Below are positions 5,753 to 22,879 of a DNA stretch of 23,229 nucleotides, piece by piece. The DNA is from Enterobacteria phage phi80. The position numbers and the translations under genes are program-made. Below the pieces are notes generated by a model. The model saw only the letters and a list, made by a program, of their open reading frames with translations, had not been told where the DNA came from and made no database searches. Location: sequence record FN582354; one strand, 5' to 3'. The stretch's first letter is position 1; each line of letters opens with the position of its first letter.

Positions 5753-5761
5753 GAGGCTATC

Positions 5762-6094: not shown

Positions 6095-6123
6095 TCCGCA
6101 TTTCTACAACCATCATCATTCAT

Positions 6124-6148
6124 AAAAGCCGCTTGCGCGGCTTTTTTT
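6124..6148 (+). terminator. intrinsic-terminator-like hairpin between D and E (GC stem, 4-nt loop, flanked by an A-run and a T7 run)
   Basis: Stem AGCCGC (6127-6132) pairs with GCGGCT (6137-6142), loop TTGC, followed by TTTTTTT (6142-6148). A near-identical hairpin is present at the same place in lambda (recalled). Confidence 0.5.
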
Positions 6149-6161
6149 ACGGGAAAAATCT

Positions 6162-7187
6162 ATGTCCGTTTACACCACTGCCCAACTGCTGGCGGTCAAT
6201 GAGAAGAAATTCAAATTCGATCCGCTTTTCCTGCGTATCTTTTTCCGCGAAACCTATCCCTTCAGTACAGAGAAGGTTTACCTGTCGCAAATTCCTGGCC
6301 TGGTCAATATGGCGCTTTACGTCTCGCCGATTGTCTCCGGCAAAGTGATCCGCTCCCGTGGCGGCAGCACGTCTGAATTCACGCCGGGTTATGTGAAGCC
6401 GAAACACGAAGTTAACCCACTGATGATGACTCTCCGCCTGCCGGATGAGGATCCGCAGAATGTCGCTGACCCGGTCTATCGCCGTCGCCGCATTATCCTT
6501 CAGAACATGAAGGATGAAGAGCTGGCGATTGCTCAGGTCGAAGAGAAACAGGCTGTTTCGGCGGTGCTCAGCGGTAAATACACCATGACCGGGGAAGCGT
6601 TCGAGCCTGTTGAAGTCGATATGGGCCGCAGCGCTGGTAACAACATTGTCCAGGCCGGTGCGGCTGCATGGTCAACCCGCGACAAAGAAACGTATGACCC
6701 GACCGATGACATTGAAGCCTACGCGCTCAACGCCAGAGGTGTGGTCAACATCATTGTGTTCGATCCGAAAGGCTGGGCGCTGTTCCGTTCCTTCAAGGCT
6801 GTTGAGAAGAAGCTGGATACGCGTCGTGGTTCTAACTCTGAGCTGGAAACTGCCGTGAAAGACCTGGGTATGGCTGTTTCATACAAGGGGATGTTTGGCG
6901 ATGTGGCAATCGTGGTGTACTCCGGCCAGTACGTCGAAAACGACGTCAAAAAGAATTATCTGCCGGACCTGACAATGGTGCTGGGGAATACCCAGGCTCG
7001 TGGCCTGCGTACCTATGGCTGCATTCTTGATGCTGATGCCCAGCGCGAAGGTATCAATGCCTCGACACGCTACCCGAAAAACTGGGTGCAGTCGGGGGAT
7101 CCGGCGCGCGAATCCACCATGATTCAGTCAGCTCCGCTGATGCTGCTGCCAGACCCTGACGCATTCGTCTCCGTCAAACTGGCATAA
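6162..7187 (+). CDS. E: major capsid protein E
   Basis: 341 aa, same length as lambda gpE. Near-identity over long stretches (YTTAQLLA, KVYLSQIPGLVNMALYVSPIVSG, NIIVFDPKGWALFRSFKAV, MVLGNTQARGLRTYGCI) recalled from lambda E. Confidence 0.97.
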   Translation: MSVYTTAQLLAVNEKKFKFDPLFLRIFFRETYPFSTEKVYLSQIPGLVNMALYVSPIVSGKVIRSRGGSTSEFTPGYVKPKHEVNPLMMTLRLPDEDPQNVADPVYRRRRIILQNMKDEELAIAQVEEKQAVSAVLSGKYTMTGEAFEPVEVDMGRSAGNNIVQAGAAAWSTRDKETYDPTDDIEAYALNARGVVNIIVFDPKGWALFRSFKAVEKKLDTRRGSNSELETAVKDLGMAVSYKGMFGDVAIVVYSGQYVENDVKKNYLPDLTMVLGNTQARGLRTYGCILDADAQREGINASTRYPKNWVQSGDPARESTMIQSAPLMLLPDPDAFVSVKLA

Positions 7188-7212
7188 ATTCGTCTCCGTC
7201 AAACTGGCATAA
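7163..7212 (+). repeat. perfect 25-bp tandem direct duplication (2 copies) spanning the E stop codon
   Basis: ATTCGTCTCCGTCAAACTGGCATAA occurs at 7163-7187 (last 7 codons of E plus TAA) and again, exactly, at 7188-7212. Confidence 0.9.
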
Positions 7213-7257
7213 CTTCCCCCAGTGGCCCTGTCGGGCCACCTTTCTGGAGTATTTCCC

Positions 7258-7674
7258 ATGACAGAGAAAGAAAAGCTGATCGCTCGCCTGAATGACCTTG
7301 GCACTCAGCTTAACCGCGAGGTCAGCACCAGCGGCACGATTCAGGAACTTACGATGCGTATTGCTGAGCTGGAAGAGGAGCTGGATGGTGATGCCAGTTC
7401 GATTGACGGTGAAAACGGAGAGAAGAATGCTCCCGACAGCACCGACAGCACCGACAGCACCGACAGCGATGTAGATGGCACGGAAAAAGTAAAAACCGAA
7501 GCGGTCACAACGGATGACCGGGTATCAGTAGAAACGCTGGTGACCTTGCACATAAACGCGCTTCACGCCACGCGTAACGAGTCTGTGTCTATTGTCGAGC
7601 CTGGTGTCGTTATCCGCGTGACTGACGTAGAGGCTAACGACCTGATATCTCGGGCGCTGGCCCGGGAAATCTGA
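7258..7674 (+). CDS. FI: DNA-packaging / head assembly protein FI
   Basis: ATG at 7258 with GGAG 8 nt upstream. N-terminus MTEKEKLIARLNDLGTQLNREVS and the ...LVTLHINALHATRNE... region resemble lambda gpFI (recalled). The track ORF starts at an upstream GTG (7222), which I consider less likely. Confidence 0.85.
   Translation: MTEKEKLIARLNDLGTQLNREVSTSGTIQELTMRIAELEEELDGDASSIDGENGEKNAPDSTDSTDSTDSDVDGTEKVKTEAVTTDDRVSVETLVTLHINALHATRNESVSIVEPGVVIRVTDVEANDLISRALAREI
7435..7467 (+). repeat. 9-bp tandem repeat (GACAGCACC, about 3.7 copies) encoding a (DST)n linker inside FI
   Basis: GACAGCACC at 7435-7443, 7444-7452 and 7453-7461, then a partial copy GACAGC at 7462-7467. Translates to DSTDSTDSTDS. 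Confidence 0.85.
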
Positions 7675-7685
7675 CAGGGGGCCTA

Positions 7686-8039
7686 ATGGCTGATTTCGAC
7701 AATCTTTTTGATGAATCGATGGCGCGCGCGGATACCACTATACGTGGATTGATGGGCGCAGAGGCAAGGATAACCTCAGGATCTTTATCCGGCGTCACGC
7801 TCCGGGGGGTCTTTGACGATCCAGAGAACATTGGTTACGCCGAAGTGGGGATCCGAATTGATGGAACCAGGCCGACGTTGTTTGTGAACACATCGGATGT
7901 TAGCGGGCTGGAAAGGCTGGATACGCTGAAGGTTAACGGGCGTGAATTTTGGGTTGATCGCGTTGGTCCGGATGATTGCGGGTCCTGCCATGTTTGGCTG
8001 GGTAGTGGATCACCTCCCGGCGGTTCGCGGCGTCGTTAA
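7686..8039 (+). CDS. FII: head completion protein FII
   Basis: 117 aa, same length as lambda gpFII. N-terminus MADFDNLFD and motif VFDDPENI..., C-terminal RRR match lambda FII (recalled). Confidence 0.95.
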   Translation: MADFDNLFDESMARADTTIRGLMGAEARITSGSLSGVTLRGVFDDPENIGYAEVGIRIDGTRPTLFVNTSDVSGLERLDTLKVNGREFWVDRVGPDDCGSCHVWLGSGSPPGGSRRR

Positions 8040-8048
8040 GGAGCATTC

Positions 8049-8630
8049 ATGTCGATAAAAGGTCTTGAGCAGGCGATCGCTAACCTGGATAGCCTGGACA
8101 GAAAGGTTCCCAATGCCAGCGCATGGGCTGTGAACCGGGTTGCTGCTAATGGCGTCTCGGTTGCCGTCCGAAGGGTGGCGAAAGAAACGGTAGCCGGTGA
8201 TAACCGCGTTTCGGGGATACCCGTAAAGCTGGTACGACAAAGGGTGCGAATCAACAAAGCCTCGGCGTCAGGGCACTCAGCGGCCCGAATTAAGGTTAAC
8301 CGGGGCAATCTTCCCGCCATCAAACTCGGTGCCGCGCAGGTCAGGGTGACGAATCGAAAGGGCCCGCTGGTTCGAAAAAGTAGCGTGTTAAGAATTGGCC
8401 GTTATGTTTTTCGCGACGCCTTTATCCAGCGCCTGGCGAACGGCCGCTGGCACGTCATGAAGCGAATTGCAGGAAAAAGTCGTTATCCCATCGACGTGGT
8501 CAAAATTCCATTGTCCGCGCCCCTCACAATTGCTTTCGAAGCAGAAAAGAAACGCATGCTTGAAGAGGAAATGCCAAAACAACTTGGCTATGCCCTCAGG
8601 CAACAACTGAGGTTGCATCTGACACGATGA
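8049..8630 (+). CDS. Z: tail completion protein Z
   Basis: 193 aa. Position between FII and U. Motifs IKGLEQA, ARIKVNRG, NGRWHVMKRIAGK.RYPIDVVKIP, LGYAL..QLR resemble lambda gpZ (recalled). Confidence 0.9.
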   Translation: MSIKGLEQAIANLDSLDRKVPNASAWAVNRVAANGVSVAVRRVAKETVAGDNRVSGIPVKLVRQRVRINKASASGHSAARIKVNRGNLPAIKLGAAQVRVTNRKGPLVRKSSVLRIGRYVFRDAFIQRLANGRWHVMKRIAGKSRYPIDVVKIPLSAPLTIAFEAEKKRMLEEEMPKQLGYALRQQLRLHLTR

Positions 8631-9025
8631 AACACACTCTCATTCGCCAGAAAATTATTGATGTGCTTGAAGAGGCCATCGGGAACGACGTCATGTTTTT
8701 TGACGGGCGTCCTGCTGTCATTGAGGAGGAGGATTTTCCTGCCGTTGCGGTCTATCTGACCGATGCGGAGTATACCGGGGAAGAACTTGATGCCGATATG
8801 TGGGCGGCAACGTTACATATTGAGGTCTTCCTGTCCTCGCAGGTACCAGATTCCGAACTGGATGAATGGATGGAAAGCCATATTTATCCTGCCCTCGCTG
8901 ACGTACCCGGTCTCGATTCACTGTTAACGCTCATGGTTCCACAAGGCTTCGATTATCAGCGCGATGATGCGATGGGGTTGTGGACTTCCGCCGATATGAA
9001 ATATTCAATCACTTACGAAATGTGA
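8627..9025 (+). CDS. U: tail terminator protein U
   Basis: 132 aa. ATGA overlap with Z. Motifs [50 protein letters not shown] match lambda gpU (recalled). Confidence 0.95.
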
Positions 9026-9032
9026 GGAAAAC

Positions 9033-9776
9033 ATGCCAACACCTAATCCACTCGCTCCTGTAAAAGGTGCCGGTACCACGCTCTGGCTGTACACCGGAAC
9101 GGGTAACGCTTTCGCCAACCCACTCTCTGATATCGACTGGAATCGCCTGGCGAAAATCAAAGAACTCACGCCGGGCGAAATGACCGCAGAATCGTATGAC
9201 GACACCTACCTCGACGACGAGGACGCCGACTGGAACGCGACCGCTCAGGGGGCAAAATTTGCTGGCGACACCTCTTTCACCCTCGCCTGGAAGCCGGGAG
9301 AAGAAGGGCAAAAAGACCTGGTCGCATGGTTTATTGATGGCTCAGTACGCTATTACAAAATCAAATATCCGAATGGTACCGTCGACGTTTTCCGCGGTTG
9401 GTGCAGCAGCCTGGGTAAAGCCATCCCGGCAAAAGAGGTTATTACCCGCACAGCGAAAATCACCAACACCGGCAAGCCGGAGCTGGCTGAAGAAAGCGGG
9501 AGCCCGAATATCCCCGTCACCGGCGTCACGCTCGATAAAGCCACGGCAAGCGTGGCCGTCGGTGCAACCACAACGCTCAATGTGACGGTTAACCCTGCCA
9601 GTGCCTCAGATAAATCCTTCCGCGTATCGTCAGCTGACCGGGCCAAAGCCACAGTTACGGCTAACGGTAACACACTGACGGTCACCGGCGTGGCGGCAGG
9701 CACCGCTGACATTATTGTAATGACCAGCGACGGTAATTTCGTTGCGGTCTGCAAAGTCACCGTAACTGCAGCGTAA
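9033..9776 (+). CDS. V: major tail tube protein V with C-terminal Ig-like (Big_2-type) domain
   Basis: 247 aa. RBS GAGGA upstream. N-terminal region [46 protein letters not shown] matches lambda gpV. The C-terminal about 90 aa ([15 protein letters not shown]...VTVTAA) has the character of the non-essential Ig-like domain. Confidence 0.95.
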
Positions 9777-9786
9777 GGAAGGACGC

Positions 9787-10218
9787 ATGTTTTCGAAAAA
9801 AGAGAAGTTCACCTGGCAAACAGAATCCCTGACCATCTTCGAACTGTCGGCGCTTCAGCGTATTGAGTTCCTGACGTTTATGGCCGCAGAGGAAAGGGCC
9901 GTCAGTGCTGACAGCGAGGGCATCAGCGATCAGGAAATGACGGCCAGGCTGATTGGCTCAAATATTCGCTGCGGTGCGCGTTTGATCGCGATGTCTTTGT
10001 GGCATAACGATCCGGCCGGCACGGATGTGGAAACGTTATATCAGCAGGTGCTGAGCGGCTGGCCGCCGGAGGCGATCGGTAAAGCAGAAATGGAAATAAA
10101 GCTGCTCTCCGGCATGCTCGTTCCGGTTGATGAAGACAACGCTGCCGATCCAGATGGCTCAACGGAGGCCGAAAGCGCAGAAACCGTTACGGCGGAAAAG
10201 CCCTTGCCAGCGAGCTGA
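9787..10218 (+). CDS. G: tail assembly chaperone G (zero-frame product)
   Basis: 143 aa, between V and H. Motif [10 protein letters not shown] matches lambda gpG (AMSLWHN). Ends just past a slippery heptamer. Confidence 0.9.
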   Translation: MFSKKEKFTWQTESLTIFELSALQRIEFLTFMAAEERAVSADSEGISDQEMTARLIGSNIRCGARLIAMSLWHNDPAGTDVETLYQQVLSGWPPEAIGKAEMEIKLLSGMLVPVDEDNAADPDGSTEAESAETVTAEKPLPAS

Positions 10219-10541
10219 AGTTTGTCCTGAATCTGGCGCGCGAGTTCGGGCGACCCGACTGGCGCGCCATGCTGGCTGGAATGACCTCCAGTGAGCTGGG
10301 CGACTGGCACCAGTTCTACCGGGATCATTATTTTCAGGACGCGCAGCTCGATGCGCATTTCTCAGAGCTGCTTTATTCCATCTCCACTCTTTTCTTCCGC
10401 GATCCGGAACTTACCCCCGCACATTTCAGCCTGCTTTCTCCTTCGGATAGCGTCATCAGCGATGATGAGCCGGATGATGACACGCTGATGACCGCCGCCG
10501 AGGGGATCACAGGAGGTATCCGATATGGCCCAGCAGATTAG
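9787..10541 (+). CDS. GT: tail assembly chaperone G-T fusion made by programmed -1 ribosomal frameshift near 10194-10200
   Basis: The -1 frame is open from 10134 (stop TGA at 10131-10133) to the stop at 10539-10541. After the shift it encodes ...[21 protein letters not shown]...GGIRYGP, matching the lambda gpT part of G-T (recalled). G is in frame 1 and T in frame 0, consistent with a -1 shift. Confidence 0.75.
10194..10200 (+). other. candidate -1 frameshift slippery heptamer G GAA AAG (lambda uses G GGA AAG)
   Basis: Only X-XXY-YYZ-like site inside the 85-nt window where both the G frame and the T frame are open (10134-10218). The AAG Lys codon re-pairs to AAA. The P-site GAA to GGA re-pairing needs a G:U pair, so the heptamer is non-canonical. 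Confidence 0.55.
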
Positions 10542-13500
10542 CGATCTGGTTATTAAGCTGGATGTTGACCGCGCCACCTTCAGCGAGCAGGTCGCCCGAA
10601 TCAAAGGGCAACTGACAGGAATGGCGGATGAGTCTGATAAAGTTCAGGCGCGAATGCAGCGTGCAGCGGACCGTCAGAGCGCGGCATTAAAGAGCGTGGG
10701 CGACGCTGGCGCGGCGGCTGCCGCAGATATGAAAGCCCGACAGTCTGCTGCAACGGAAGGGCTGGCCAAAGACTGGCAGAACGTTTCTAAGTCCGTTGAT
10801 GAAACTCACCGCCGCGTGACCGAGCTTAATCAGCGTATGCGGGAAAATGACGGACAGGCCGCAGCGCTTGCCCGCCGTCAGGATGAACTGGCGGCATCCT
10901 TTTTCCGCCAGATTGACGGCGTTCGCCAGCTCAATGGTGAAACGCAGTCGCTTGCGAACGTGCAGGCGCGCTTTCGTGCGGCAAGGGCACAGGGCAATAT
11001 CACCCAGCAGGATTATCTCGCCCTGATTTCCCGCACCACGGCCAGGCAAAAAGAGCTGCAGATCATAGAGGAAAAATCGGCCGCCGCGCGTACCCGATTC
11101 CTCAGTCAGCTGAAGCAACAGGTCGCAGAGCAAAAACTCTCCGGTACCGAGTTGCTGCGCATGAAGGCGGCGCAGGTTGGTGCAAGCGATGCGGCTGAGG
11201 TCTATATCCGCAAGCTCGAGGCTGCCAAAGTGGCCACGCACGGTCTGGGCCTGAAAAGTGCCGCAGCGCGGCAGGAACTGGGGATACTGATCGGCGAGGT
11301 CATGCGCGGTAACTTCGGTGCACTGCGCGGCTCCGGGATCACGCTGGCGAACCGGGCAGGATGGATAGACCAGCTGCTGTCGCTGCGCGGGCTTGGGATC
11401 GCCGGCATGGTTGGTGGTATTGCCGCGGCGGTTTACGGGCTGGGTAAAGCCTGGTATGACGGCAGCAAAGAGTCCGAGGAATTTAACAGGCAGCTGATCC
11501 TGACCGGGAATTACGCCGGGAAAACGTCCGGACAGCTACAGGCACTGGCGCGCTCACTGGCAGGTAATGGCATCACACAGCATGCTGCTGCAGGTGTGCT
11601 GGCGCAGGTTGTCGGAAGTGGTGCGTTTAGCGGTAATGATGTCAGCATGGTGAGCAATGTTGCTGCCAGGCTGCAGCAGGCAACCGGGCAGGCCGTCGAC
11701 GAAACCATCAACCAGTTTAAACGCCTGAAGGATGATCCGGTTAATGCAGTCACAACGCTCAACGATTCGCTGCATTTTCTGACGGCCACGCAGTATGAAC
11801 AGATTGCCTCTGCTCAGGCGATGGGAGATACGCAGAAAGCATCAGAGCTTGCCATGCGCGCATATTCTGATGCGGTCATTCAGCGGGCCGGGGCGGTTGA
11901 GGAAAATCTTGGCTCCCTCGAAAAAGCCTGGAACTGGGTGAAGAATGCGGCCTCAGGCGCGTGGGATGCGATGCTGGGCATAGGGCGTAATCCTGACACC
12001 GCGATGAAGCGCCAGGACTCTTTTGCTGAATGGCAGGCAGCAGAGAAAGAGTACCGTGCTCTGTCCGGCAATCTCAAGGTTGATCCGGACTATGCCGGTA
12101 ACAACGTTCTGCAAAAGGCAGATGCGGAAAGGCTGAGAAACGCGCGCCAGCAGGTAGAGCTTAAGAAGCAGGCTTACGATCTTGCCGATAAGCAATATGC
12201 CCAGGAAGGGCTGGCAGCTGCCAGGGAAAAAATGCGGACGGAACAGCAGACACAGGCAGTCCGGACCCAGCAGCAATTTAATCAGATGGTTGAATCCGGG
12301 GCGACGGCGGCAGAAAAACGTGCCCTTGCGGAGAAAAAACTCAATCAGCTTATCGCTAAAAACCGCCAGGATGCGAAAGACGGCATCGCCACGTTGTGGA
12401 CTGAAAAGGACATAGCGGCAGCACGCGCCGGTATTAAAAAGAAGTGGAAGGATCCCAAAACGCCGAAAGGCAAAAGCTATTCAACGCCAGCCGGGGATAA
12501 AGCTGAAGAAAAAGCGCAGGCTGAACTTCTCACCCTTCAGGCCCAGCTTAAAACGCTCGAGCAGCATACCAGCGTAAACGACGTCATAAGCAAACAGCGT
12601 CAGGATCTCTGGCAGACTGAAAATCAGTTCACCGTTCTGCAGGAGGCCGCTGGGCGTCGTCAGCTTACGGCGCAGGAAAAATCCCTGCTGGCGCACAAGG
12701 AAGAAACGCTCGAGTACAAGCGGCAGCTGGCCGACCTGGGCGATAAGGTTGCCAGGCAGCAAAAGCTCAACCAGCTGACCGACCAGGCCGTGAAGTTTGA
12801 GCAGCAGCAAAAAGCCGCCAGGGCGGGCCTGCAGGCTCAGTCTGAGGGGCTATCCACCCGCGAGGCCGGGCGACAAACCACCCTGCAACGTCTCAGCGAG
12901 AGCTATTCATATAATCCTCAGGCGCAGCAAAAGGTTCTGGAAGAGCAAAGGGCGACGTTCGAGGCTGAAGATGCCCTGCGCGCAAACTGGCTGGCCGGTG
13001 CGAAACAGGGCTGGGCCGAATATCAGGATTCAGCGACAAACGTTTTCAGCTCCGTTCAGCAGATTTCGCAGGCAACGTTCAGCGGGCTGGCTGGCCAGCT
13101 TACCAGCCTGACGACAACCGGGAAGGCGAGCTTCCGGGACTTCACCAGCTCAATCCTCAAAATGATTGTGTCCGTTATCAACCAGCTGCTGGTGGCTTAC
13201 ACCATCCAGAGCGCAATGGGCTGGGTGAGCGGCGGGGCGAAAGCCTCCTCTGCAGGTCAGTCATTCGCGGTCCAGTCATACCGGCCACAGGGTTTTGACG
13301 TGGGCGGTTTTACCGGGCACGGCGGCAAGTACGAGCCAGCCGGTATCGTTCACCGCGGGGAATTCGTCTTCACCAAAGAATCAACCAGCCGCATCGGCGT
13401 GGCTAATCTCTATCGCCTGATGCGCGGGTATGCCTCGGGTGGTCTGGTCGGCGGCGGGAACGCAGCCGGTGCTGGCATGGGCGGGATTAGTGTTTATGCC

Positions 13501-13662
13501 CCAGTCAGCATCAGCCAGCAGGGGAGTGACGGAAGCATAAATCAGGCGAACGCCACGGGGACGGCGAAACAGCTGCAGGCGATTGTTCAGCAGACAATCA
13601 CCGAGCGACTGAAAAAAGAAATGTCCGCGGGCGGCGTGCTTTATTCGAGGAGGACACAGTGA
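10525..13662 (+). CDS. H: tail tape measure protein H
   Basis: 1045 aa. RBS AGGAGG at 10511-10516. Long alanine/glutamine-rich, coiled-coil-like sequence with a glycine-rich C-terminus ([22 protein letters not shown]...), typical of lambdoid tape measure proteins. Position between G-T and M. Confidence 0.95.
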
Positions 13663-13997
13663 CGGACACGTTTACCTGGCGCACGCGAAAAACAGCGCAG
13701 GGCACTGAAACAGCCCGAACGCTGCAGGCCCAGTTCGGGGATGGCTACAAACAGATAGCGGGGATGGGGATCAACGACAAACAGGAAACGTGGAACCTGG
13801 ACTGGACGGGCACCAGACAGGAGGCGGCTGCGCTGCGCGCTTTCCTGATGTCTCACGTTACTAAATCGTTCTGGTGGACCACTCCATGGGGTGAAAAAAA
13901 GCTGTTCAGAATGAAGGCCGATTCGTTCAGCGTTTCTTTCCCTACCGGGAAAAAAGCCACTGTGGCCTTCACTTTTGAACAGGCGTTCGCGCCCTGA
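13659..13997 (+). CDS. M: minor tail protein M
   Basis: 112 aa. GTG start overlapping the H stop (GTGA), RBS GAGGAGG upstream. Motifs FGDGY, WNLDW and WWTTPWGEK parallel lambda gpM (recalled). Confidence 0.92.
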
Positions 13998-14016
13998 TTT
14001 TCTCGAAAAACACTGA

Positions 14017-14042
14017 AAGCTGCCTCCGGGCGGCTTTTTTTT
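14017..14042 (+). terminator. intrinsic-terminator-like hairpin with T8 tract in the M-L intergenic gap
   Basis: 7-bp stem AGCTGCC (14018-14024) pairs with GGCGGCT (14029-14035) with one G:U, loop TCCG, followed by eight T (14035-14042). L starts at 14054. Confidence 0.5.
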
Positions 14043-14053
14043 ATGGGGGGAGT

Positions 14054-14791
14054 ATGAGTTTTACGGCAGACATACAACAGCTTGAGCCCGGCAGCGTTAT
14101 TCAGCTGATTGAGATCGACGGCACTGAATTCGGTATGGATCAGGTGCTGCGTTTTCATGCGCACAATATTCAGGAAGAGGGGTGGGCAGCCTTCGCCGCA
14201 GAAAATCTGCCCGCCATTATCTGGCAGGGAAACCAGTACGATCCCCATCCCTACGAACTTAAGGGGATGGAGTTATCGAGTACAGGTTCCCAGCCAACGC
14301 CCACGCTGTCCGTCGGGAACGTCGGAAACTATGTCACCGCGCTGTGTCTTGAATATGACGATATGGTCAGGGCTAAGGTCAAAATCCATACCACGCTTTC
14401 GAAGTATCTCGATGCCGCCAACTGGAAAAACGGTAATCCGGGTGCCAGCCCGGCCGATGAGCGCGTACAGCTCTTTTACGTCAATGCCAAAACCGCAGAG
14501 ACGCGTGTACAGGTTGATTTCGAGCTGTGCTCTCCTTTCGATATTCAGAGCCTGCAGCTGCCGACACGGCAGATTACGCCTGTCTGCACCTGGTGTATGC
14601 GGGGCTGGTACCGAAGCGGGACTGGATGCGATTACAACGGCACGAAATACTTTACCAAAGACGGTACACCGACCGATGACCCGTCGAAAGATGTATGTGG
14701 CGGCCCGCCGCAGGATTGTCAGGATCGTCACGGCCCGGACGCGCCGCTGCCGTTCGGCGGTTTCCCGGCTGCAAACCTGCAGGGGAAATAA
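14054..14791 (+). CDS. L: minor tail protein L (tail tip complex)
   Basis: 245 aa. RBS GGGGGAG upstream. Cysteine-rich C-terminal region (CTWCMRGWYRSGTGCDYNG...CGGPPQDCQDRHG) and overall pattern resemble lambda gpL (recalled). Confidence 0.92.
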   Translation: MSFTADIQQLEPGSVIQLIEIDGTEFGMDQVLRFHAHNIQEEGWAAFAAENLPAIIWQGNQYDPHPYELKGMELSSTGSQPTPTLSVGNVGNYVTALCLEYDDMVRAKVKIHTTLSKYLDAANWKNGNPGASPADERVQLFYVNAKTAETRVQVDFELCSPFDIQSLQLPTRQITPVCTWCMRGWYRSGTGCDYNGTKYFTKDGTPTDDPSKDVCGGPPQDCQDRHGPDAPLPFGGFPAANLQGK

Positions 14792-14792
14792 A

Positions 14793-15512
14793 ATGCGTGA
14801 AAAATTGCTGGATGCTATCCGTCAGCACGTCGCTGCTGAATACCCCAAAGAAGCCTGCGGCCTGATTGTTCAGTCAGGCCCAGCAACAAATCTTTATTCC
14901 TGCCGCAACATTGCCGATAAGCCCGAGGAGACATTCACGCTCTCCCCGGAAGACCAGCTCGCTGCCCGCGCGCGCGGTGAGATCATCATGCTCATTCATT
15001 CCCATCCGGATGTGGTTCGGCTGGTGCCCTCGGAGCTGGACCGGATCCAGTGCGACTGGTCGGGGATTGAGTGGGGGATCATGTCCTGGCCGGACGGGGA
15101 TTTTTGTACGATTTCCCCGCGTGAAGACCGGGATTATGCCGGGCGGCAGTGGGTGCTGGGTTACGCCGACTGCTGGTCGCTTATCCGTGAATTTTATCTG
15201 CGCGAATACGGCATTGTTCTCGGCAATTATTCAGTACCTTACGAATGGTGGGAGAGCGGCAAAGAGCGGCTCTACGATGACAACTGGGAGCGTGAGGGGT
15301 TCGTTGAGATTGACGCCGGTGCTATGCAGCCCGGGGACATCATCATGATGAGTGTGCAGGCATCGGTGACCAATCACGCCGCTGTATATCTGGGTGATAA
15401 CATCATTCTCCATCATCTTTTCGGGCACCTTTCTTCGCGAACGCCTTATGGAAAATATTATCGCGACAGAACGGTCCGGGTGGTCAGGCATAAGGACAGA
15501 ATGCATGGTTAA
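14793..15512 (+). CDS. K: tail tip assembly protein K (JAB/MPN plus NlpC/P60-like domains)
   Basis: ATG at 14793, 1 nt after the L stop. JAMM-like motif E...HSHPD...S..D (IIMLIHSHPDVVRLVPSELD) followed by a Cys/His region (ADCWSLIREFY ... NHAAVYLG) as in lambda gpK. The 467-aa track ORF 14109..15512 is an out-of-frame extension through L. Confidence 0.92.
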   Translation: MREKLLDAIRQHVAAEYPKEACGLIVQSGPATNLYSCRNIADKPEETFTLSPEDQLAARARGEIIMLIHSHPDVVRLVPSELDRIQCDWSGIEWGIMSWPDGDFCTISPREDRDYAGRQWVLGYADCWSLIREFYLREYGIVLGNYSVPYEWWESGKERLYDDNWEREGFVEIDAGAMQPGDIIMMSVQASVTNHAAVYLGDNIILHHLFGHLSSRTPYGKYYRDRTVRVVRHKDRMHG

Positions 15513-16122
15513 GACGCTTATTCTCGAAGGTAAAATGGCAAAAAAATTCGGTAAACGCGTTCAGTTTGATGTTGCCGACCTGCGCGAGATGCTCAGGGCC
15601 ATGTGTTCACAGGTTCCCGGATTCAAAAAATATATGTCTGAAGCTCATATGAAGGGGATCCGTTTCGCCTTTTTTAACGGTGGCAACATTATCGGGCTGG
15701 TTGAGTTTGATATGACCCGCGGTGGAAGCGTGTACCGGATCGTGCCCGTTTATGAGGGGGCCAAAAGTTCGGGCGTCCTGCAGATAGTTGTCGGGGCTGT
15801 TGCGCTGGTCGCTGCATTCTTTACCGCTGGTGCGAGCATGGCAGCCTGGGGCGCGGCGATGAGTGCAACAGCTATCAGCGCCACGTCAATTCTGACAGGG
15901 GTCGGAGTGTCGATGATGCTGGGGGGCGTTGTCCAGATGCTCACGCCCCAGCCATCCTTCGGCGCGGGTAAATCTTCCAGCACGGACAACACGCCTAACT
16001 ATGCCTTCGGGGCGCCGGTCAATACCGTCGCTATGGGGCATCCTGTCCCCCTGGCCTACGGTCTGATCGAGGCTGGGGGAGCGATAGTCAGCGCCGGTAT
16101 GTACTCGAGCGATCAGCAATAG
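15505..16122 (+). CDS. I: tail tip assembly protein I
   Basis: ATG at 15505 overlapping the K 3' end, AAGGA about 8 nt upstream. Has a hydrophobic Gly/Ala-rich segment (VVGAVALVAAFFTAGASMAAWGAAMSATAIS), typical of lambdoid gpI. Position between K and J. An alternative start is the ATG of MAKKFGK about 30 nt downstream. Confidence 0.8.
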   Translation: MVKTLILEGKMAKKFGKRVQFDVADLREMLRAMCSQVPGFKKYMSEAHMKGIRFAFFNGGNIIGLVEFDMTRGGSVYRIVPVYEGAKSSGVLQIVVGAVALVAAFFTAGASMAAWGAAMSATAISATSILTGVGVSMMLGGVVQMLTPQPSFGAGKSSSTDNTPNYAFGAPVNTVAMGHPVPLAYGLIEAGGAIVSAGMYSSDQQ

Positions 16123-16150
16123 TGAAAATGCAACATAATAAGGATGAACG

Positions 16151-16178
16151 TTACATTGCAATCACCCTTGGTTATCAT
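16151..16178 (+). promoter_or_regulatory. candidate sigma70-type promoter for the I-J moron (-35 TTACAT, 16-bp spacer, -10 TATCAT)
   Basis: Hexamers read by eye in the AT-rich segment just downstream of the I stop. Not statistically scored. Confidence 0.3.
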
Positions 16179-16203
16179 GTCCAAAACGATGCCGATCAAG
16201 GAG

Positions 16204-16662
16204 ATGAAAGTGAAAAAATACGGTTTGGTCTTATTAGGTGTGCTCTTTATTTCAGGTTGTGCCCCACAAAATCAGAATAACAATTTACAAAAGCAATACG
16301 CTGATTTGGCAAATTGTCAAGAGGATAACATTACTATGCCAAAACAAATGCCGCATAGTAAAAAAGAGTTTGCTGAATTTTTATCTAAGGAAGCTCTTAA
16401 TGCCTCAGCAGATCAGTTCGTTACCCAGAAGCGTATAGAGATTCTGCAATTAGTTGGGTGGGATAATTCGGTTGCTGATGCAATAACGACATGTGGCGCT
16501 ACCAGAAAGAGCAAGCTGAAAGAAATTGGGTCTAATGTGTTTGAAACCATGAAAGCCAATACTAAAGACACAGAGGAACGTCGTGCTCTTGTTGAGGCTT
16601 ATAGTTCGTGGGAAGCTTATGTAACCAGTCAAACGCCACTCGCAAAACAGGACTTTGACTAA
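16204..16662 (+). CDS. moron-encoded lipoprotein of unknown function, inserted between tail genes I and J
   Basis: Signal peptide with lipobox: MKVKKYGLVLLGVLFISGC followed by APQ. AAGGAG at 16198-16203. Start is either ATG 16204 or GTG 16210; the track ORF begins further upstream at 16144. Mature part is about 135 aa, hydrophilic and helical-looking, with 2 Cys. Region is visibly AT-richer than the flanking tail genes. Confidence 0.7.
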   Translation: MKVKKYGLVLLGVLFISGCAPQNQNNNLQKQYADLANCQEDNITMPKQMPHSKKEFAEFLSKEALNASADQFVTQKRIEILQLVGWDNSVADAITTCGATRKSKLKEIGSNVFETMKANTKDTEERRALVEAYSSWEAYVTSQTPLAKQDFD

Positions 16663-16717
16663 AAAGTTAGTTATTACAAAAACATGTAATAAGACGCCAT
16701 CATTAATATTAACTAAT

Positions 16718-16741
16718 AACCCAGCTCAGGCTGGGTTTTTT
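16718..16741 (+). terminator. intrinsic terminator downstream of the moron lipoprotein gene
   Basis: Stem CCCAGC (16720-16725) pairs with GCTGGG (16730-16735), loop TCAG, followed by TTTTTT (16736-16741). Lies 13 nt upstream of the J start. Confidence 0.6.
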
Positions 16742-16753
16742 AATGGGGTAAAA

Positions 16754-19700
16754 ATGCAACTTCTCCATGGTGAAACCATCATACAGGGTGCAAAAGGGGG
16801 CGGTGGAAGCGCGCATACTCCGGTTGAGCAACCTGACGATCTGCTGTCGGTCGCAAAATTAAAAATGCTCATTGCCGTTTCTGAGGGAGAAATACAGGGC
16901 GACCTGACCGCTCAGAATATTTTCCTCAACGATACGCCGCTGGCAAACGACAGCGGGGAATACAACTTCAGCGGCGTGAAATGGGAGTTCCGTAAGGGCA
17001 CACAGGACCAGACCTATATTGCCGGGATGCCCCAGGTCGATAACGAACTGGCGGTTGGCACAACTGTCACCACCACCGCGCCCTGGACACGCCAGTTTAC
17101 CAATCTTTCCCTGGATGCTATCCGCATCAAGCTCAGCCTTCCGGTCCAGTATCTCTATAAAGATAACGGCGATATGGTGGGCACGGTCACCGAGTATGCG
17201 ATCGATTTATCAACGGACGGCGGCGCCTGGAAAACGGTTGTAAACGGCAAATTTGACGGAAAGACCACGACGGAATATCAGCGTGACCACCGTATCGATC
17301 TGCCAAAATCCACGTCCGGCTGGTCTGTCAGGGTCAGGCGTATTACGGCTGATGCCAGCGGATCAAATTCGAAACTGGTTAACGCCTTCAAGGTGTTTTC
17401 CTATGCGGAAGTCATCGACAGCAAGCTTCGTTATCCTTTAACCGCGCTCCTGTATGTCGAAGTGGACAGCAGCCAGTTCAACGGCAGCGCGCCGAAAGTG
17501 ACCTGTAAGATAAAAGGCAAGCTGATTAAGGTTCCGGATAATTACGATCCGATAACCCGAACCTATTCTGGCTCATGGTCCGGCGGGTTCAAAATGGCCT
17601 GGTCCAATAACCCCGCCTGGATATTTTACGATCTGGTTCTGGATGAAATTTACGGCATGGGCACGCGCGTGGATGCGTCCATGGTGGATAAGTGGGCTCT
17701 GTATTCAATCGCCCAGTACTGTGACGAAATGGTTTCCGACGGGGCCGGTGGCACCGAACCGCGTTTCACCTGCAACGTTTTCATTCAGAGCCAGGAGGAC
17801 GCCTGGCAGGTACTTAACGATCTCGCCGCGGTATTTCGTGGAATAACGTTCTGGGGCAACGATCAGATTTATGTCCAGGCAGACGTCCCGCAGGACGATG
17901 TTGACTGGGTTTATAACGCCTCAAATGTGATCGATGGGCTGTTTACTTATGCGGGCGGCTCATACAAGAATCGCTACAGCTCCTGCCTGGTGTCCTGGTC
18001 CGATCCGCAGAACCATTACAGCGATACCGTTGAGGGGGTTTACGATTCGGCGCTTGTAGAACGTTACGACGTCCGGCAGACGTCCCTGACCGCAATCGGC
18101 TGCACCTCGCAAAGTGAAGCGCACCGACGCGGTCGATGGGTATTGCTCTCCAATGCCAAAGACGGGACCGTATCGTTTGGCGTGGGGCTGGACGGTTATA
18201 TCCCTTTGCCCGCTGAAATTATCGGTGTCGCCGATCCTTTCCGTTCCGGCAAGGAGAACGGGGGACGCATCAGGGCGGTCAATGGCCGCCAGATTACGCT
18301 GGATCGAGAAATAGACTACGCGGCGAAAGACCGGCTGGTGGTTAACCTGCCTGACGGAAAAGCCCAGACGCGCACAATCAGCGCGGTGAGCGCAGATAAA
18401 AAAACGGTGACGGTGGCCACCGCATTTAGTCAGGCACCTGTGGCGGGTGCTGTCTGGGCGATAGACAGTGATAACCTCGCAATACAGTATTTCCGGGTCA
18501 CTTCAATTGCAGCTAACGACGACAGCACAGGCGGTTTCACTATTACGGCCGTTCAGCACGATCCAAACAAATACCGTTACATCGATGACGGCGTTCGGGT
18601 CGAGTCGCCCCCGATCACCGTCACGCCGATAAGCGTCCTGTCAGCGCCGAAGAATATCGTGGTGACTGAGAGCGATCATGTTTCACAGGGGCTGACGGTA
18701 GCAAGCCTGGACGTGTCATGGGATAAGGTAGAGGGCGCAATCCGGTACGTTGCCCAGTGGCGTAAGGACAACGGGGACTGGATAAACGTTCCGGTTACCA
18801 GCGCGCAGGGTTTCTCGGTTCAGGGCATTTATTCGGGCAGCTATGACGTGCGCGTCCGGGCGCTGAATGCGCAGGATACGTCGTCACCATGGGGGTACGG
18901 TGAAACAACTTATCTCTCCGGTAAAACGGGAAAACCGGGTACTCCGCTCAACTTTCTGGCGACCGAAGATGTGGTCTGGCATATCGACCTGACCTGGAAA
19001 TTTCCGGATGGCTCTGGCGACACGGCCTATACAGAGATTCAGCGCGCCACAACTGCCGACTACGCCAATCCTGAACTGCTGGTCCTGGTGCCGTACCCGG
19101 CTGCAGATTATCAGCATGGCCCCATGCCGGCCGGCGTTCGCCAGTGGTACCGCGCACGCCTGATTGACCGTATCGGTAACGCCGGGGACTGGACCGACTG
19201 GATCATGGGCACGTCCTCGATAGATGTCAGCGAAATAACTAATGACATTCTGGAGGATATGAAAGAGTCGGAAACGTTCAAAGACCTGATCGAGAACGCG
19301 GTGGACAGCAACGAAAAAATTGCTGGCATGGCTGACGAAATCAAAAACCATGCCGACGAGCTGGAGCAGCAGGCGAAAGATATACAGGAAAACGCTGACG
19401 GGCTGGCGCAGGCGGCGGTAAAAATCGATGAGATTTCCGTTTCAATGGACGGTATGACAGGAGGCGTGAAGAATTCGGCAATTGCGATAATCCAGAATGG
19501 GCTGGCGCAGGTTGTCAGTCGTCGTTCCCAGACAGCAACAAACGCCGGGAACAGTGCCAGTATAGACAGAGTGGATACTACGATTGCCGATACCAGCCAG
19601 GCGGTTGCTCGCGCGCTGGTGACGCTGGATGCTTCAGCTGGTGGGAATATCTCCAACTCTACCGATCTCACTGAAACTCTGGCCGATTTCACGCAGGCAT

Positions 19701-20233
19701 CGGCGACAAAAATTAACACCCTGACTGTTAAATCTGGCGAAAACAGTGCCGCGATAAATGTCAACGCACAGGATATCGCAGATGTAAACGGTAACCTAAG
19801 TGCGATGTACAACATCAAGGTTGGTGTCTCCAGCAATGGACAGTATTACGCCGCGGGGATGGGTATCGGCGTGGAGAATACGCCATCCGGCATGCAGTCG
19901 CAGGTTAGCTTCCTGGCTGACCGCTTCGCCGTCACCACGGCAGCCGGAAATAGCGTAGCTTTGCCGTTCGTGATCCAGAACGGGCAGACATTCATCCGGG
20001 CCAGCTTCATCCAGGACGGCACTATCAGCAACGCAAAGATTGGTAATTTTATCCAGTCGAACAATTATGTTGCTGGTTCTGCTGGCTGGAAGCTTGATAA
20101 AGGGGGGACGTTTGAGAACTACGGTTCGACTGCTGGTGAGGGAGCCATGAAACTGACAAATCAGACGATCAGCGTCAAAGATGGCAGTAATGTTCTTAGG
20201 GTGCAGGTTGGCCGATTAACGGGAGTATTCTGA
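16754..20233 (+). CDS. J: tail tip / central tail fibre protein J (host specificity protein)
   Basis: 1159 aa from ATG 16754 (the track ORF starts upstream at 16655, inside the moron terminator region). N-terminal two thirds are co-linear with lambda gpJ (recalled). Examples: KGGGGSAHTP versus lambda KGSSKGHTP, YDPITRTYSG, NNPAWIFYDL, KWALYSIAQYCDEMVSDGAGGTEPRFTCNV, FRVTSIAANDDSTGGFTITAVQHDP. C-terminal third is an expanded coiled-coil-like region. The protein ends without an obvious lambda-type receptor-binding domain. Confidence 0.93.
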   Translation: MQLLHGETIIQGAKGGGGSAHTPVEQPDDLLSVAKLKMLIAVSEGEIQGDLTAQNIFLNDTPLANDSGEYNFSGVKWEFRKGTQDQTYIAGMPQVDNELAVGTTVTTTAPWTRQFTNLSLDAIRIKLSLPVQYLYKDNGDMVGTVTEYAIDLSTDGGAWKTVVNGKFDGKTTTEYQRDHRIDLPKSTSGWSVRVRRITADASGSNSKLVNAFKVFSYAEVIDSKLRYPLTALLYVEVDSSQFNGSAPKVTCKIKGKLIKVPDNYDPITRTYSGSWSGGFKMAWSNNPAWIFYDLVLDEIYGMGTRVDASMVDKWALYSIAQYCDEMVSDGAGGTEPRFTCNVFIQSQEDAWQVLNDLAAVFRGITFWGNDQIYVQADVPQDDVDWVYNASNVIDGLFTYAGGSYKNRYSSCLVSWSDPQNHYSDTVEGVYDSALVERYDVRQTSLTAIGCTSQSEAHRRGRWVLLSNAKDGTVSFGVGLDGYIPLPAEIIGVADPFRSGKENGGRIRAVNGRQITLDREIDYAAKDRLVVNLPDGKAQTRTISAVSADKKTVTVATAFSQAPVAGAVWAIDSDNLAIQYFRVTSIAANDDSTGGFTITAVQHDPNKYRYIDDGVRVESPPITVTPISVLSAPKNIVVTESDHVSQGLTVASLDVSWDKVEGAIRYVAQWRKDNGDWINVPVTSAQGFSVQGIYSGSYDVRVRALNAQDTSSPWGYGETTYLSGKTGKPGTPLNFLATEDVVWHIDLTWKFPDGSGDTAYTEIQRATTADYANPELLVLVPYPAADYQHGPMPAGVRQWYRARLIDRIGNAGDWTDWIMGTSSIDVSEITNDILEDMKESETFKDLIENAVDSNEKIAGMADEIKNHADELEQQAKDIQENADGLAQAAVKIDEISVSMDGMTGGVKNSAIAIIQNGLAQVVSRRSQTATNAGNSASIDRVDTTIADTSQAVARALVTLDASAGGNISNSTDLTETLADFTQASATKINTLTVKSGENSAAINVNAQDIADVNGNLSAMYNIKVGVSSNGQYYAAGMGIGVENTPSGMQSQVSFLADRFAVTTAAGNSVALPFVIQNGQTFIRASFIQDGTISNAKIGNFIQSNNYVAGSAGWKLDKGGTFENYGSTAGEGAMKLTNQTISVKDGSNVLRVQVGRLTGVF

Positions 20234-20234
20234 A

Positions 20235-20537
20235 ATGGCTTATGGAATACAGACCTGGGATGCTTCAGGAAAACCCAACAACTATGGCATCAAACCCGTT
20301 TCCGTCGTTGGGCGAATACAGCTGGCTGCCGGGCAAACCTCCGGCAGCTGGTCTTTTACGGTGCCCTCAGGAATGAAAGTTGGTTTTGTTCTTTCACTTG
20401 ATGAAGGAGGTAACAGCGTAGGGCGGCGCATTGTCGCGTCAGGGAGCACAATAACCGTAAGCGCTGCATCTTCTGTAGGTCTGGGTAATTATCCGGCCTC
20501 AAAGTGTGAAGTGGTCGTTTTCATGGAGAAAGCATAA
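20235..20537 (+). CDS. hypothetical protein (100 aa), first of two coupled ORFs after J
   Basis: ATG 2 nt after the J stop, GGGAG about 9 nt upstream. Composition is rich in Gly/Ser/Val/Thr, suggesting a beta-rich fold. I recognise no family. Confidence 0.6.
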   Translation: MAYGIQTWDASGKPNNYGIKPVSVVGRIQLAAGQTSGSWSFTVPSGMKVGFVLSLDEGGNSVGRRIVASGSTITVSAASSVGLGNYPASKCEVVVFMEKA

Positions 20538-21211
20538 TGGCCGAATTTGGCGCGATGATATTAATGGACAACGGGAACCCATTTGTAACGCCCCAGTCAA
20601 CGCCTTTTTGTCTTTACGGCAAGTACACTTTCAACTCCTCTGCTAATGGCAGTTCGCAGCAGGTTGCTCAGAATATTCGATTAAATGCTGACTACCCTGT
20701 GATGGTATTTATCAGGACCACAAATACCGCCCAGCCCACGCCAGTAATATCTTACCGGAATGGAGGAAATGTATATGTCGCGGGGGTTAATCCCTATAAG
20801 TTGAGCTTCACGTTAACCGCATATATATTTGCCATATTTCCCCAGACGTTACCGAAATGGGGGATGGCCATCTGGGATGCGGCAGGAAAGCTGGTGCTCA
20901 CTAATGAGTCCCGGGTGTTGTCCGACCTACAGACAATTGGAACGCCTGGCGCAAACGGAGGGATAAATATCGATCAGACACAAAACGGGCCATGGGCTGT
21001 TGCACCTGCACAGCTTGGCCAAAGCATCGTTGTGAATAACTCAACCCGGCCTCCGACAATCTACACCATTAATGCTTATTCGGCGTGCAGGTTTGACGGG
21101 GCCAATACGAGGATAAACGCAGGGGGGACCTCCACTGGCACAGGCTCTCCGGGAGGGGTAACGAATACTGGAATTTCCTTAACCGCGATAAATACAGCGG
21201 CCTATGACTGA
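20537..21211 (+). CDS. hypothetical protein (224 aa), translationally coupled to the upstream 100-aa ORF
   Basis: TAATG stop/start overlap at 20534-20539, GGAG 8 nt upstream. Composition is rich in Thr/Asn/Gly/Ser, resembling beta-rich receptor-binding or fibre-like domains. No recognised motif. Confidence 0.65.
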   Translation: MAEFGAMILMDNGNPFVTPQSTPFCLYGKYTFNSSANGSSQQVAQNIRLNADYPVMVFIRTTNTAQPTPVISYRNGGNVYVAGVNPYKLSFTLTAYIFAIFPQTLPKWGMAIWDAAGKLVLTNESRVLSDLQTIGTPGANGGINIDQTQNGPWAVAPAQLGQSIVVNNSTRPPTIYTINAYSACRFDGANTRINAGGTSTGTGSPGGVTNTGISLTAINTAAYD

Positions 21212-21232
21212 TTGATCGTTTTGGGCGATCAA
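21212..21232 (+). other. 7-bp inverted repeat hairpin immediately after the stop of the 224-aa ORF
   Basis: TTGATCG (21212-21218) and CGATCAA (21226-21232) are reverse complements with a 7-nt loop. No T-tract follows. Three GATC sites are clustered within about 40 bp. Confidence 0.4.
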
Positions 21233-21322
21233 TAACTGATAATTGATCTATCAAACCAATTATACCCACCTCTTTCATGTTGGTATTGTCTAAGTTCATG
21301 AATACCTCTGGATACTATCAAA

Positions 21323-21556
21323 ATGAGAAAACTGATTATCTGCATGGCAGGCGCTGTCATGCTTACAGGATGCGCTGGCGTAATTGAGAAACAGGAACCA
21401 GTTTGCAGCGGCACTGCAATCGTTGGCGGTCAGGAAACTACGGTTCAGATTTACGGTGTGCGTAAACAAAACAACCAGACGCAGTACCGGGCTGGATATC
21501 CTTTCAGCTGGCGCTGGGTAAGTGCGAATACATTTACCGAAACAACCTGCAAATAA
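21323..21556 (+). CDS. small lipoprotein (77-aa precursor), Cor/Llp-like candidate superinfection-exclusion protein
   Basis: Signal peptide with lipobox: MRKLIICMAGAVMLTGC followed by AGV. Mature part about 60 aa with 2 more Cys. Preceded by an AT-rich intergenic region and followed by its own terminator. No obvious SD. Family assignment is inferred from size, lipobox and position, not from recognised sequence identity. Confidence 0.6.
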   Translation: MRKLIICMAGAVMLTGCAGVIEKQEPVCSGTAIVGGQETTVQIYGVRKQNNQTQYRAGYPFSWRWVSANTFTETTCK

Positions 21557-21577
21557 CCCACTACGCTTAAACATAAA

Positions 21578-21600
21578 CCTCGCTCCGGCGGGGTTTTTTT
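21578..21600 (+). terminator. intrinsic terminator downstream of the small lipoprotein gene
   Basis: Stem CCTCGC (21578-21583) pairs with GCGGGG (21588-21593) with one G:U, loop TCCG, followed by seven T (21594-21600). Confidence 0.6.
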
Positions 21601-21616
21601 ATTGCCTGGAGAAAAT

Positions 21617-22873: not shown

Positions 22874-22879
22874 GTAAAA

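Follow-up and report, generated by a model that had tools for sequence, protein, structure and literature searches.

The window analyzed here, i.e., the whole stretch of 23,229 nucleotides taken from sequence record FN582354 of Enterobacteria phage phi80, includes two neighboring tail genes that are related to M and L of phage lambda. The region 13400-14700, which contains the junction between them, is 100% identical to the phi80 genome JX871397/NC_021190. The whole window (ca. 23 kb) matches JX871397 at 99.7% identity from the first base of that record and therefore represents a variant of phi80 (30 mismatches and 10 gap openings in a base-by-base comparison over 19.4 kb). The two genes are labeled in JX871397 as PHI80_16, "similar to lambda M" (also "N15 gp17"), and PHI80_17, "similar to lambda L." Since the M stop codon occupies 13995-13997 and L starts at 14054, the gap between them is exactly 13998-14053, 56 nt long. 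The flanking genes and the features of the gap are listed below (positions are those of the window).

13659-13997, + strand: gene PHI80_16, M-like distal tail protein (ORF list and GenBank annotation), ending in a TGA stop codon at 13995-13997
13998-14014, + strand: 5' part of the M-L spacer, variable and apparently unconstrained (10 of its 17 columns differ among 71 phi80-like gaps)
14015-14038, + strand: terminator hairpin with a 10-bp stem, GAAAGCTGCC/GGCGGCTTTT, and a C(UCCG)G tetraloop
14035-14042, + strand: T8 run (the U-tract), overlapping the stem in its first four T, which pair with the upstream AAAG
14045-14052, + strand: Shine-Dalgarno sequence of L, GGGGGGAG, ahead of the L ATG at 14054
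14054-14791, + strand: gene PHI80_17, L-like tail tip hub protein (ORF list and annotation)

The 56-bp gap, the hairpin, the eight T and a fresh ribosome-binding site for L had all been pointed out in an initial annotation of this DNA, and each of them was found in its place. The hairpin GAAAGCTGCC-TCCG-GGCGGCTTTT has a fold energy of -15.6 kcal/mol, and in its GC core the positions 14019-14024 pair with 14029-14034 (five G-C pairs and one G-U). The T8 run is located on the + strand, like M and L themselves, while on the - strand the stem is followed only by TTTCAGTG and the terminator scan gives no site there. From what is generally known of terminator design, the combination of a GC-rich stem, a C(UNCG)G tetraloop, an uninterrupted U8 and a short upstream A-tract would make an efficient intrinsic terminator. 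Between PHI80_16 and PHI80_17, JX871397 already carries a "putative rightward transcription terminator" (record positions 13996-14019, equivalent to 14019-14042 of the window). It is the same element, given in the record as a prediction only. The M-L terminator of phi80 is, as such, an ordinary and known kind of feature that was already in GenBank. Neither this annotation nor the accessory-gene slot found in relatives (see below) had been mentioned in the initial annotation. A literature search found no paper on the phi80 transcriptome.

As for other possible contents of the phi80 gap, the ORF list shows no accessory gene, only a four-codon ATG-GGG-GGA-GTA-TGA, and a consensus scan detected no sigma-70-like promoter in or near it. 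Rfam, at gathering thresholds, gave 0 matches across the whole window. Coupling of the mini-ORF (14043-14057) to the L start was considered and judged incidental; the equivalent gaps of the Pantoea type read ATTGGG, and a comparable unit of phage N15 has no in-frame stop. RNAfold also draws an outer helix between the 5' spacer (UUUUCUC) and the Shine-Dalgarno sequence of L, which would be an anti-Shine-Dalgarno switch. This candidate was rejected, since the duplex energies were no better than those obtained with shuffled 5' flanks (mean z = +0.33 versus shuffles, 62 distinct gaps).

We screened the window for terminators with a strict scan (stems of 6 bp or longer, 5 or more of the pairs being G-C, a loop of 3 to 8 nt and at least 6 T immediately after). 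Four sites were recovered in the 23 kb, against 0.05 expected from 300 first-order Markov simulations, and the three found on the + strand are each located just 5' of a gene start (L, J and PHI80_25). With a permissive scan there was no overall enrichment (28 sites, with 19 ± 5.4 expected from shuffles), and the fold energy of the 71-nt segment that contains the M-L hairpin is unremarkable alone (z = -1.85 versus shuffles). The layout of the M-L gap recurs at two other places of the window.

16210-16662: low-GC lipoprotein moron morF, 5' of the second hairpin
16718-16743 (hairpin 16718-16737), + strand: second hairpin, AACCCAGC-TCAG-GCTGGGTT plus T6, after morF, -13.1 kcal/mol
21575-21600 (hairpin 21575-21596), + strand: third hairpin, AAACCTCGC-TCCG-GCGGGGTTT plus a T run, after the cor lipoprotein gene, -13.5 kcal/mol

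Behind the morF hairpin comes AATGGGGTAAAA-ATG, with the ATG at 16754, and in IMG/VR the relatives of J begin at the corresponding ATG, preceded by a hairpin. Judging by these relatives, the ATG at 16754 is likely to be the start of J in phi80, which suggests a correction of the annotated one. The cor hairpin, annotated as a terminator in JX871397, is followed by ATTGCCTGGAGAAAAT-ATG at 21617, the beginning of PHI80_25. The initial annotation had noticed that the TCCG loop and the style of the stem recur after the Cor-like gene, and the hairpin at 21575-21596 agrees with this. A special relation between the M-L hairpin and the cor terminator was nevertheless discarded, because UNCG-type loops and similar stems are general among these terminators, pointing to a common terminator or moron-end design, of which the units at morF and in N15 are further examples.

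To place the gap among its relatives, we measured the interval from the M stop codon to the L start at every one of 135 loci with L relatives (122 after the removal of duplicates), coming from IMG/VR and from GTDB (a single genome for each species), together with some annotated records. By tblastn, a relative of L was found in 1752 phage records. A hairpin with a T run is present 5' of L in 108 of the 122 non-redundant loci, in 107 of them just before the L ribosome site; at another locus (L101) the hairpin is kept and ca. 100 nt of tandem repeat have been inserted between it and L. Most loci (ca. 96 of the 122) have a short gap of ca. 49 to 74 nt, with the hairpin and T6-9, and in 10 there are 336 to 1679 bp of extra DNA before the hairpin. 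Among ca. 98 cargo-free gaps, only two (L113 and L125) have lost the terminator. M and L overlap by four nucleotides (ATGA), without any hairpin, in 12 of the 122 loci, namely Aeromonas phage pAEv1818 and 11 prophages. The same happens with genes 17 and 18 of N15 (4-nt overlap, no gap). The initial annotation gives M and L of lambda as contiguous or overlapping, and they do overlap by 1 nt, leaving no gap (M, 13100-13429; L, 13429-14127).

In a neighbor-joining tree of L, the outgroups (L identity of 46 to 54%; Photorhabdus, Superficieibacter and Pseudescherichia) have the ATGA overlap, and the spacer is common to the entire ingroup, apart from a few nested exceptions such as Aeromonas phage pAEv1818. 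The hairpin was found in loci from Escherichia, Enterobacter, Citrobacter, Pantoea, Erwinia, Rahnella, Rosenbergiella, Serratia and Gilliamella, in which L is 67 to 99% identical to that of phi80. Over this range the stems diverge (GCTGCC/GGCGGC, CAGCTGCC/GGCAGCTG, ACCGCC/GGCGGT, AGGGCGC/GCGCCCT, AGGACGC/GCGTCCT, AACCACC/GGTGGTT and AAAGCCCGC/GCGGGCTTT). Five T columns (in 38 diverse relatives) and the GG of the L Shine-Dalgarno sequence are invariant, the T run being 6 to 9 long across loci. The distance from the end of the stem to the L ATG is 15 to 17 nt in 97 of 107 loci.

Several observations indicate that the pairing itself has been maintained. In a MAFFT alignment of the 38 diverse sequences, 86.8% of the cells of a 9-pair helix are paired, versus 34 to 68% when the 3' partners are slid by one to three columns. 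Both-sided changes are found in six of the nine pairs (37 cells), and values as high did not arise in any of 500 shuffles, although this shuffle control ignores phylogeny. RNAalifold recovered the inner helix independently. At closer range, among 71 phi80-like gaps, only three columns of the stem vary, and all of the changes preserve the pairs (A-U to G-U and U-G to U-A). Examples of pair-preserving or compensatory change within a lineage are AGGGCGC/GCGCCCT versus AGGACGC/GCGTCCT and CCGCC/GGCGG versus CCACC/GGTGG. It should be noted that not all of this variation seems to be gradual. The M proteins of loci L083 and L110 are 95% identical and the terminators that follow them have unrelated stems; the stems of L070 and L067 likewise differ. 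Part of the apparent covariation appears to reflect wholesale replacement by unrelated terminators arriving with cargo, and not stepwise compensation. The hairpin and its U-tract are nearly always present and show no decay in the cargo-free gaps, which argues for selection on a terminator-like structure. At the M/L position, it seems to be the structure rather than the sequence that is conserved. The identification as an intrinsic terminator, proposed from the phi80 sequence, is in this respect strengthened; all the sequence features are present, and they are conserved in relatives with compensatory changes.

The 10 gaps with extra DNA reveal what else can be found at this place. The inserts are located after the M stop codon and before the hairpin and have a low G+C content (0.31 to 0.44). 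Their products are unrelated to one another and include lipoproteins, a weak HEPN-like protein and unknowns. None of nine cargo proteins received a solid assignment from Pfam, and two matches, to HEPN_RiboL-PSP and to an NZF zinc finger, were weak and under the curated cut-offs. In the insert of one relative, a promoter-like TTGACA-17-TATATT is found 5' of the cargo ORF, which corresponds to the classical arrangement of a moron (PMC3594210). The same junction separates segments of different ancestry. The L proteins of L073 and L083 are 96% identical and their M proteins only 54%, and in several close relatives of phi80 the nucleotide identity to the window is 97 to 98% in H-M and ca. 90% in L, with the step at M/L. 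A mosaic junction between exchanged tail modules, one of the possibilities raised in the initial annotation, fits these data well. Within this family, the M-L gap is both an accessory-gene slot and a recombination joint for the H-M and L-K-I-J modules.

Similar units are found at a second junction and in other tail families. Between genes 20 (I) and 21 (J) of N15, an orphan stem-loop is annotated as 'putative rho-indep. transcription terminator' (NC_001901, 15307-15330), and nearly the same sequence occupies the M/L slot of loci L115 and L133. An exact 22-mer, GCCACCTCCGGGTGGCTTTTTT, was found in at least 120 stretches of IMG/VR. It is directly before L in at least 17 of them, 16 of which carry a different L family (ca. 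42% identical to lambda L), and directly before J in at least 24. These L- and J-preceding hairpins either come directly after the preceding gene or have 290 to 1374 nt of cargo in front of them. The 31 filled M/L or I/J gaps listed contain at least 25 unrelated protein clusters, including lipoproteins and a PD-(D/E)xK/NucC-like nuclease (PADLOC E = 2.7e-26), and one gene is common to the M/L slot of L133 and the I/J slot of L187. We could distinguish one cassette family with conserved ends, in which the 3' end GGGATGT-N9-ACATCC is followed by TGATATTCGATCAGT and then by the terminator. Its genes are variable and partly defense-like, and it is found in the M/L slot of two L families and in the I/J slot of N15-like phages. 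A 19-nt motif, ATCCTGATATTCGATCAGT, is directly 5' of the terminator in 4 of the 10 filled phi80-type gaps and in 12 among the 120 matches listed in the 22-mer scan. With up to four mismatches it was found in 0 of 63 distinct cargo-free gaps, the chance rate being 2 in 20,000 windows. The 5' spacer of phi80 bears a by-eye likeness to it (CCTGATTTTCTCGA); descent from the cargo-linked motif was not supported, given that none of the 63 cargo-free gaps matches. The terminator-ribosome-site units at M/L and I/J might be conserved docking and exchange points for mobile cassettes, moving between junctions and unrelated siphophage tail families. The phi80 orphan would then be an empty dock, kept because it enables the gain of cargo and the exchange of modules. 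We regard this broader view as rather unlikely.

The interpretation that we favor, and that seems probable, is that the M-L element is a genuine Rho-independent terminator under selection, which would stop unmodified polymerase and be read through by the Q-modified one, and which marks an empty moron slot and recombination joint. The initial annotation had assumed a late operon under the control of Q, and the annotation of JX871397 outside the window is in agreement; it includes PHI80_57 ('similar to lambda Q'), the -35 and -10 of pR', a gp17(Q) binding site and two downstream (tR') terminators. In lambda, Q is described as narrowing the RNA exit channel and blocking the formation of terminator hairpins, giving a termination-deficient polymerase (PMC9388147). 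Since a Q-like gene, pR' and a Q-binding site are annotated, and Q-loaded polymerase is described in this way, plain polymerase most likely stops at the M-L site and Q-loaded polymerase most likely reads through.

Under the favored interpretation, when an unmodified polymerase arrives, the GC-rich, UCCG-capped hairpin would form, and the complex would pause on the U8 and release. Such polymerases could come from moron promoters, where present, or from spurious or internal promoters of the repressed prophage, and internal promoters have been mapped within prophage late operons (PMC7067206). The tip genes L, K, I and J would in this manner be kept silent in the lysogen, insulated against transcripts that come from morons or are spurious. 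In the lytic cycle, a polymerase that has received the Q-like antiterminator of phi80 at pR' would pass the terminator, and L would be translated from its own Shine-Dalgarno sequence and not via coupling to M. In evolutionary terms, relatives have diverse morons in the stretch that follows M and precedes the hairpin, and H-M and L-K-I-J modules are swapped there. In phi80 the slot is empty, and its terminator is therefore an orphan. Some observations count against this interpretation, besides the caveats on covariation given above. The consensus scan found no sigma-70-like promoter on the + strand over 5736-15509, and a role in the translation of L or in the stability of the mRNA would agree just as well with the fixed distance to the L start and with the U-rich tract.

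Such a role is the basis of the first alternative, in which the element acts after transcription. The hairpin would block 3'-to-5' exonucleases and stabilize the Z-to-M mRNA, the U-rich tract would enhance independent initiation of L translation, or both. Stabilization of processed mRNA 3' ends had also been raised as a possibility in the initial annotation. U-rich leaders enhance translation through ribosomal protein S1. The tightly fixed distance between hairpin and L start (15 to 17 nt in 97 of 107 loci), the invariance of the T run and of the Shine-Dalgarno GG, and the strong Shine-Dalgarno sequence that L has for itself, in place of the ATGA coupling of some relatives, all go in this direction. 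However, the fixed spacing is also the shortest packing of a U-tract, a Shine-Dalgarno sequence and a spacer, and a stabilizer needs no U-tract right after its stem, yet that pairing of features is what has been conserved. The same layout is found after the morons morF and cor, where a terminator role is conventional, and an outer helix hiding the Shine-Dalgarno sequence of L had to be rejected, as described above. We consider a purely post-transcriptional element unlikely.

The main idea of the initial annotation was a partial attenuator acting in lytic growth. Even Q-modified polymerase would sometimes stop at the site, so that L, K, I and J are lowered with respect to the upstream tail genes and the stoichiometry is tuned. 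The hairpin and the U8 tract do look strong, and in lambda there are six copies of gpM against three each of gpL, gpI, gpJ and gpH (PMC10721106), numbers compatible with a step down at M/L. However, H, also with three copies, is upstream of the site, so that the partition is not clean, and the large step in copy number, which separates the tube protein V from the minor ones, is elsewhere. Besides, the same tip is assembled in lambda, N15, pAEv1818 and the outgroup prophages, where M and L overlap and there is no terminator, and Q is described as making polymerase termination-deficient. Tuning by attenuation thus seems quite improbable.

A similarly small probability corresponds to the idea that the hairpin is a neutral relic, i.e., the 3' end of a deleted moron that survives only beside the essential ribosome-binding site of L and has no function in phi80. 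The morons of relatives end in such a hairpin at the same place, and the phi80 gap has neither gene nor promoter. Cargo also seems to bring its own terminator, as in the above-mentioned case of L083 and L110, with near-identical M and different stems, and likewise in L070 and L067. Against this idea, the hairpin has been lost in only 2 of ca. 98 cargo-free gaps (L113 and L125), and the stems are intact across lineages whose L identity goes from 67 to 99%. The within-lineage changes preserve pairing or compensate, and it is the adjoining 5' spacer, not the stem, that changes freely. Finally, that the hairpin is a chance inverted repeat beside a T run, devoid of biological meaning, might be suggested by the permissive scan and by the z of the 71-nt segment, but is effectively refuted by the strict scan, with its + strand sites all at gene starts, and by the conservation of the structure, compensatory changes included, at over 100 loci, a combination that excludes an origin by chance.

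For phi80 itself, little changes; it has an annotated, ordinary-looking terminator at which read-through under Q is expected. What appears to be new is the comparative part, namely the long-term retention with compensatory change, the recurrent cargo at M/L and I/J, and the terminator units common to junctions and tail families. This retention suggests that purifying selection can act on a geneless terminator even within an operon subject to antitermination. The arrangement of hairpin, T run, Shine-Dalgarno sequence and then L or J start may also serve as a landmark for accessory or defense-like genes hidden in tail operons, and for points of tail-module exchange.

Three known systems are close to what we describe. 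The first is lambda tR' and the late-operon terminators that Q overrides. The M-L terminator is likewise intrinsic and downstream of pR' in an operon annotated with Q, and by analogy it would be read through in the same way. However, ca. 18 kb of the late transcript, including cos, separate it from pR' (record coordinates), and it is therefore not the regulatory terminator of the switch. The second is the I/J unit of N15, AGCCACC-TCCG-GGTGGCT-T6-ATGGGCGCAAT-ATG, which has the layout of the phi80 M-L gap and is also geneless and within the tail-tip operon, although it is found at I/J and not at M/L, and the sequence of its stem differs. The third are the morons, which by definition have a promoter and a terminator of their own and are expressed from the repressed prophage (PMC3594210). 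As with the morons of the HK97/HK022 type, in which a promoter, a gene and a terminator are found between adjacent late genes, the phi80 M-L gap is additional DNA separating two genes that in related phages are adjacent or overlap. It has an intrinsic terminator at its downstream edge, beside the ribosome site of the next gene, and in relatives the slot is occupied by genes of low G+C content, with a promoter-like site in one of them. The phi80 gap differs in having the terminator only, without gene or promoter, and the retention of that terminator in ca. 96 cargo-free loci is a property that the moron concept does not predict.

Judged from sequence comparison, the junction between tail genes I and J is a second terminator-marked slot for accessory genes, like the one between M and L; such a slot is filled when it holds accessory cargo before the terminator and cargo-free when it is empty. 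The unit compared with the IMG/VR loci L144-L263 was that of N15:

5308-5345 of the N15 locus (L143), I|J terminator unit.

Among the IMG/VR matches listed, the exact 22-mer GCCACCTCCGGGTGGCTTTTTT stands directly before J in 24 of 120 and before L in 17 of 120, and is spread over at least three tail-gene families. The slot before J or before L, again among the GCCACCTCCGGGTGGCTTTTTT matches listed, is either empty or occupied by 290 to 1374 nt of cargo.

The start of J itself deserves revision.

16655, + strand, TTG start of J as annotated (16630 in the deposited phi80 genome, JX871397).

With this TTG, the J ORF overlaps morF, the low-GC lipoprotein gene before J, and the terminator hairpin at 16718-16737 falls within J (region considered, window 16655-16760). 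An in-frame ATG at 16754 lies directly behind T6-AATGGGGTAAAA. Relatives of J, both those from IMG/VR and the one in E. coli HH107, begin at the equivalent position, directly 3' of a hairpin or of I. The true start is more likely to be ATG 16754 than the annotated TTG. The window is a variant of JX871397: across the 19.4 kb compared (window 3378-22977) there are 30 mismatches, two of the resulting amino-acid differences lying in the product of gene L, and 10 gap openings, and the coordinate offset rises from 1 to 23 nt. Of 5426 complete E. coli genomes, 37 contain the segment formed by M, the terminator and L; one of the prophages of strain Nissle 1917 (NZ_CP022686, 436426-436776) and of its derivatives matches it at 100% identity.

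Two other hairpins in the window resemble terminators.

18405-18422, - strand, hairpin CGGTGGCCACCGTCACCG followed by T7, antisense within J.
14745-14766, second "putative terminator" annotated in the record, 3' end of L.

The former is strong and one of only four sites in the window that pass the strict scan (stem of ≥6 bp with ≥5 G-C pairs, loop of 3-8 nt, directly followed by ≥6 T). The arms of the latter (CTGCC-GTTC-GGCGG) nearly match those of the M|L hairpin; only TTTCCC is found downstream of its stem and both the strict and the looser, permissive scan missed it, so this hairpin is probably weak or non-functional.

The short sequence between the M|L hairpin and L supplied two further features.

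14043-14057, mini-ORF of four codons (ATG GGG GGA GTA TGA), its stop overlapping the L start (ATGA).
2344-2500 of the Rahnella inusitata locus (L101), insertion between the conserved terminator and L.

The mini-ORF was judged incidental; Pantoea-type gaps, which read ATTGGG, do not conserve it. The insertion, of ca. 100 nt, holds 2.5 copies of CATAACGCGCTTTGAACCACT, and L is served there by a new Shine-Dalgarno sequence, AGGAGAG.

Linked to the cargo, directly 5' of the terminator, there is a conserved 3' module made up of GGGATGT-N9-ACATCC and then the near-palindrome TGATATTCGATCAGT.

20-45 nt before the terminator, module, in L098, L103, L115, L133, L169, L170, L179, L185, L187, L197, L212 and L213.

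Different phage families have it in their filled slots, at M|L as well as at I|J; of the 63 distinct gaps free of cargo, none contains it (rate expected by chance, 2 in 20,000). The module may act as the promoter/operator of the minus-strand cargo gene, or else as a recombination site.

One cargo gene in an M|L slot encodes a putative nuclease.

M|L gap of L197 (IMG/VR 3300011827_000043), - strand, ORF of 268 aa.

PADLOC assigned it to a PD-(D/E)xK/NucC-like nuclease (PD_DExK, E = 2.7e-26; NucC, 1e-13), and a cargo gene of L103 gave a weak HEPN match in Pfam. Part of the slot cargo therefore looks, by homology, like anti-phage defence.
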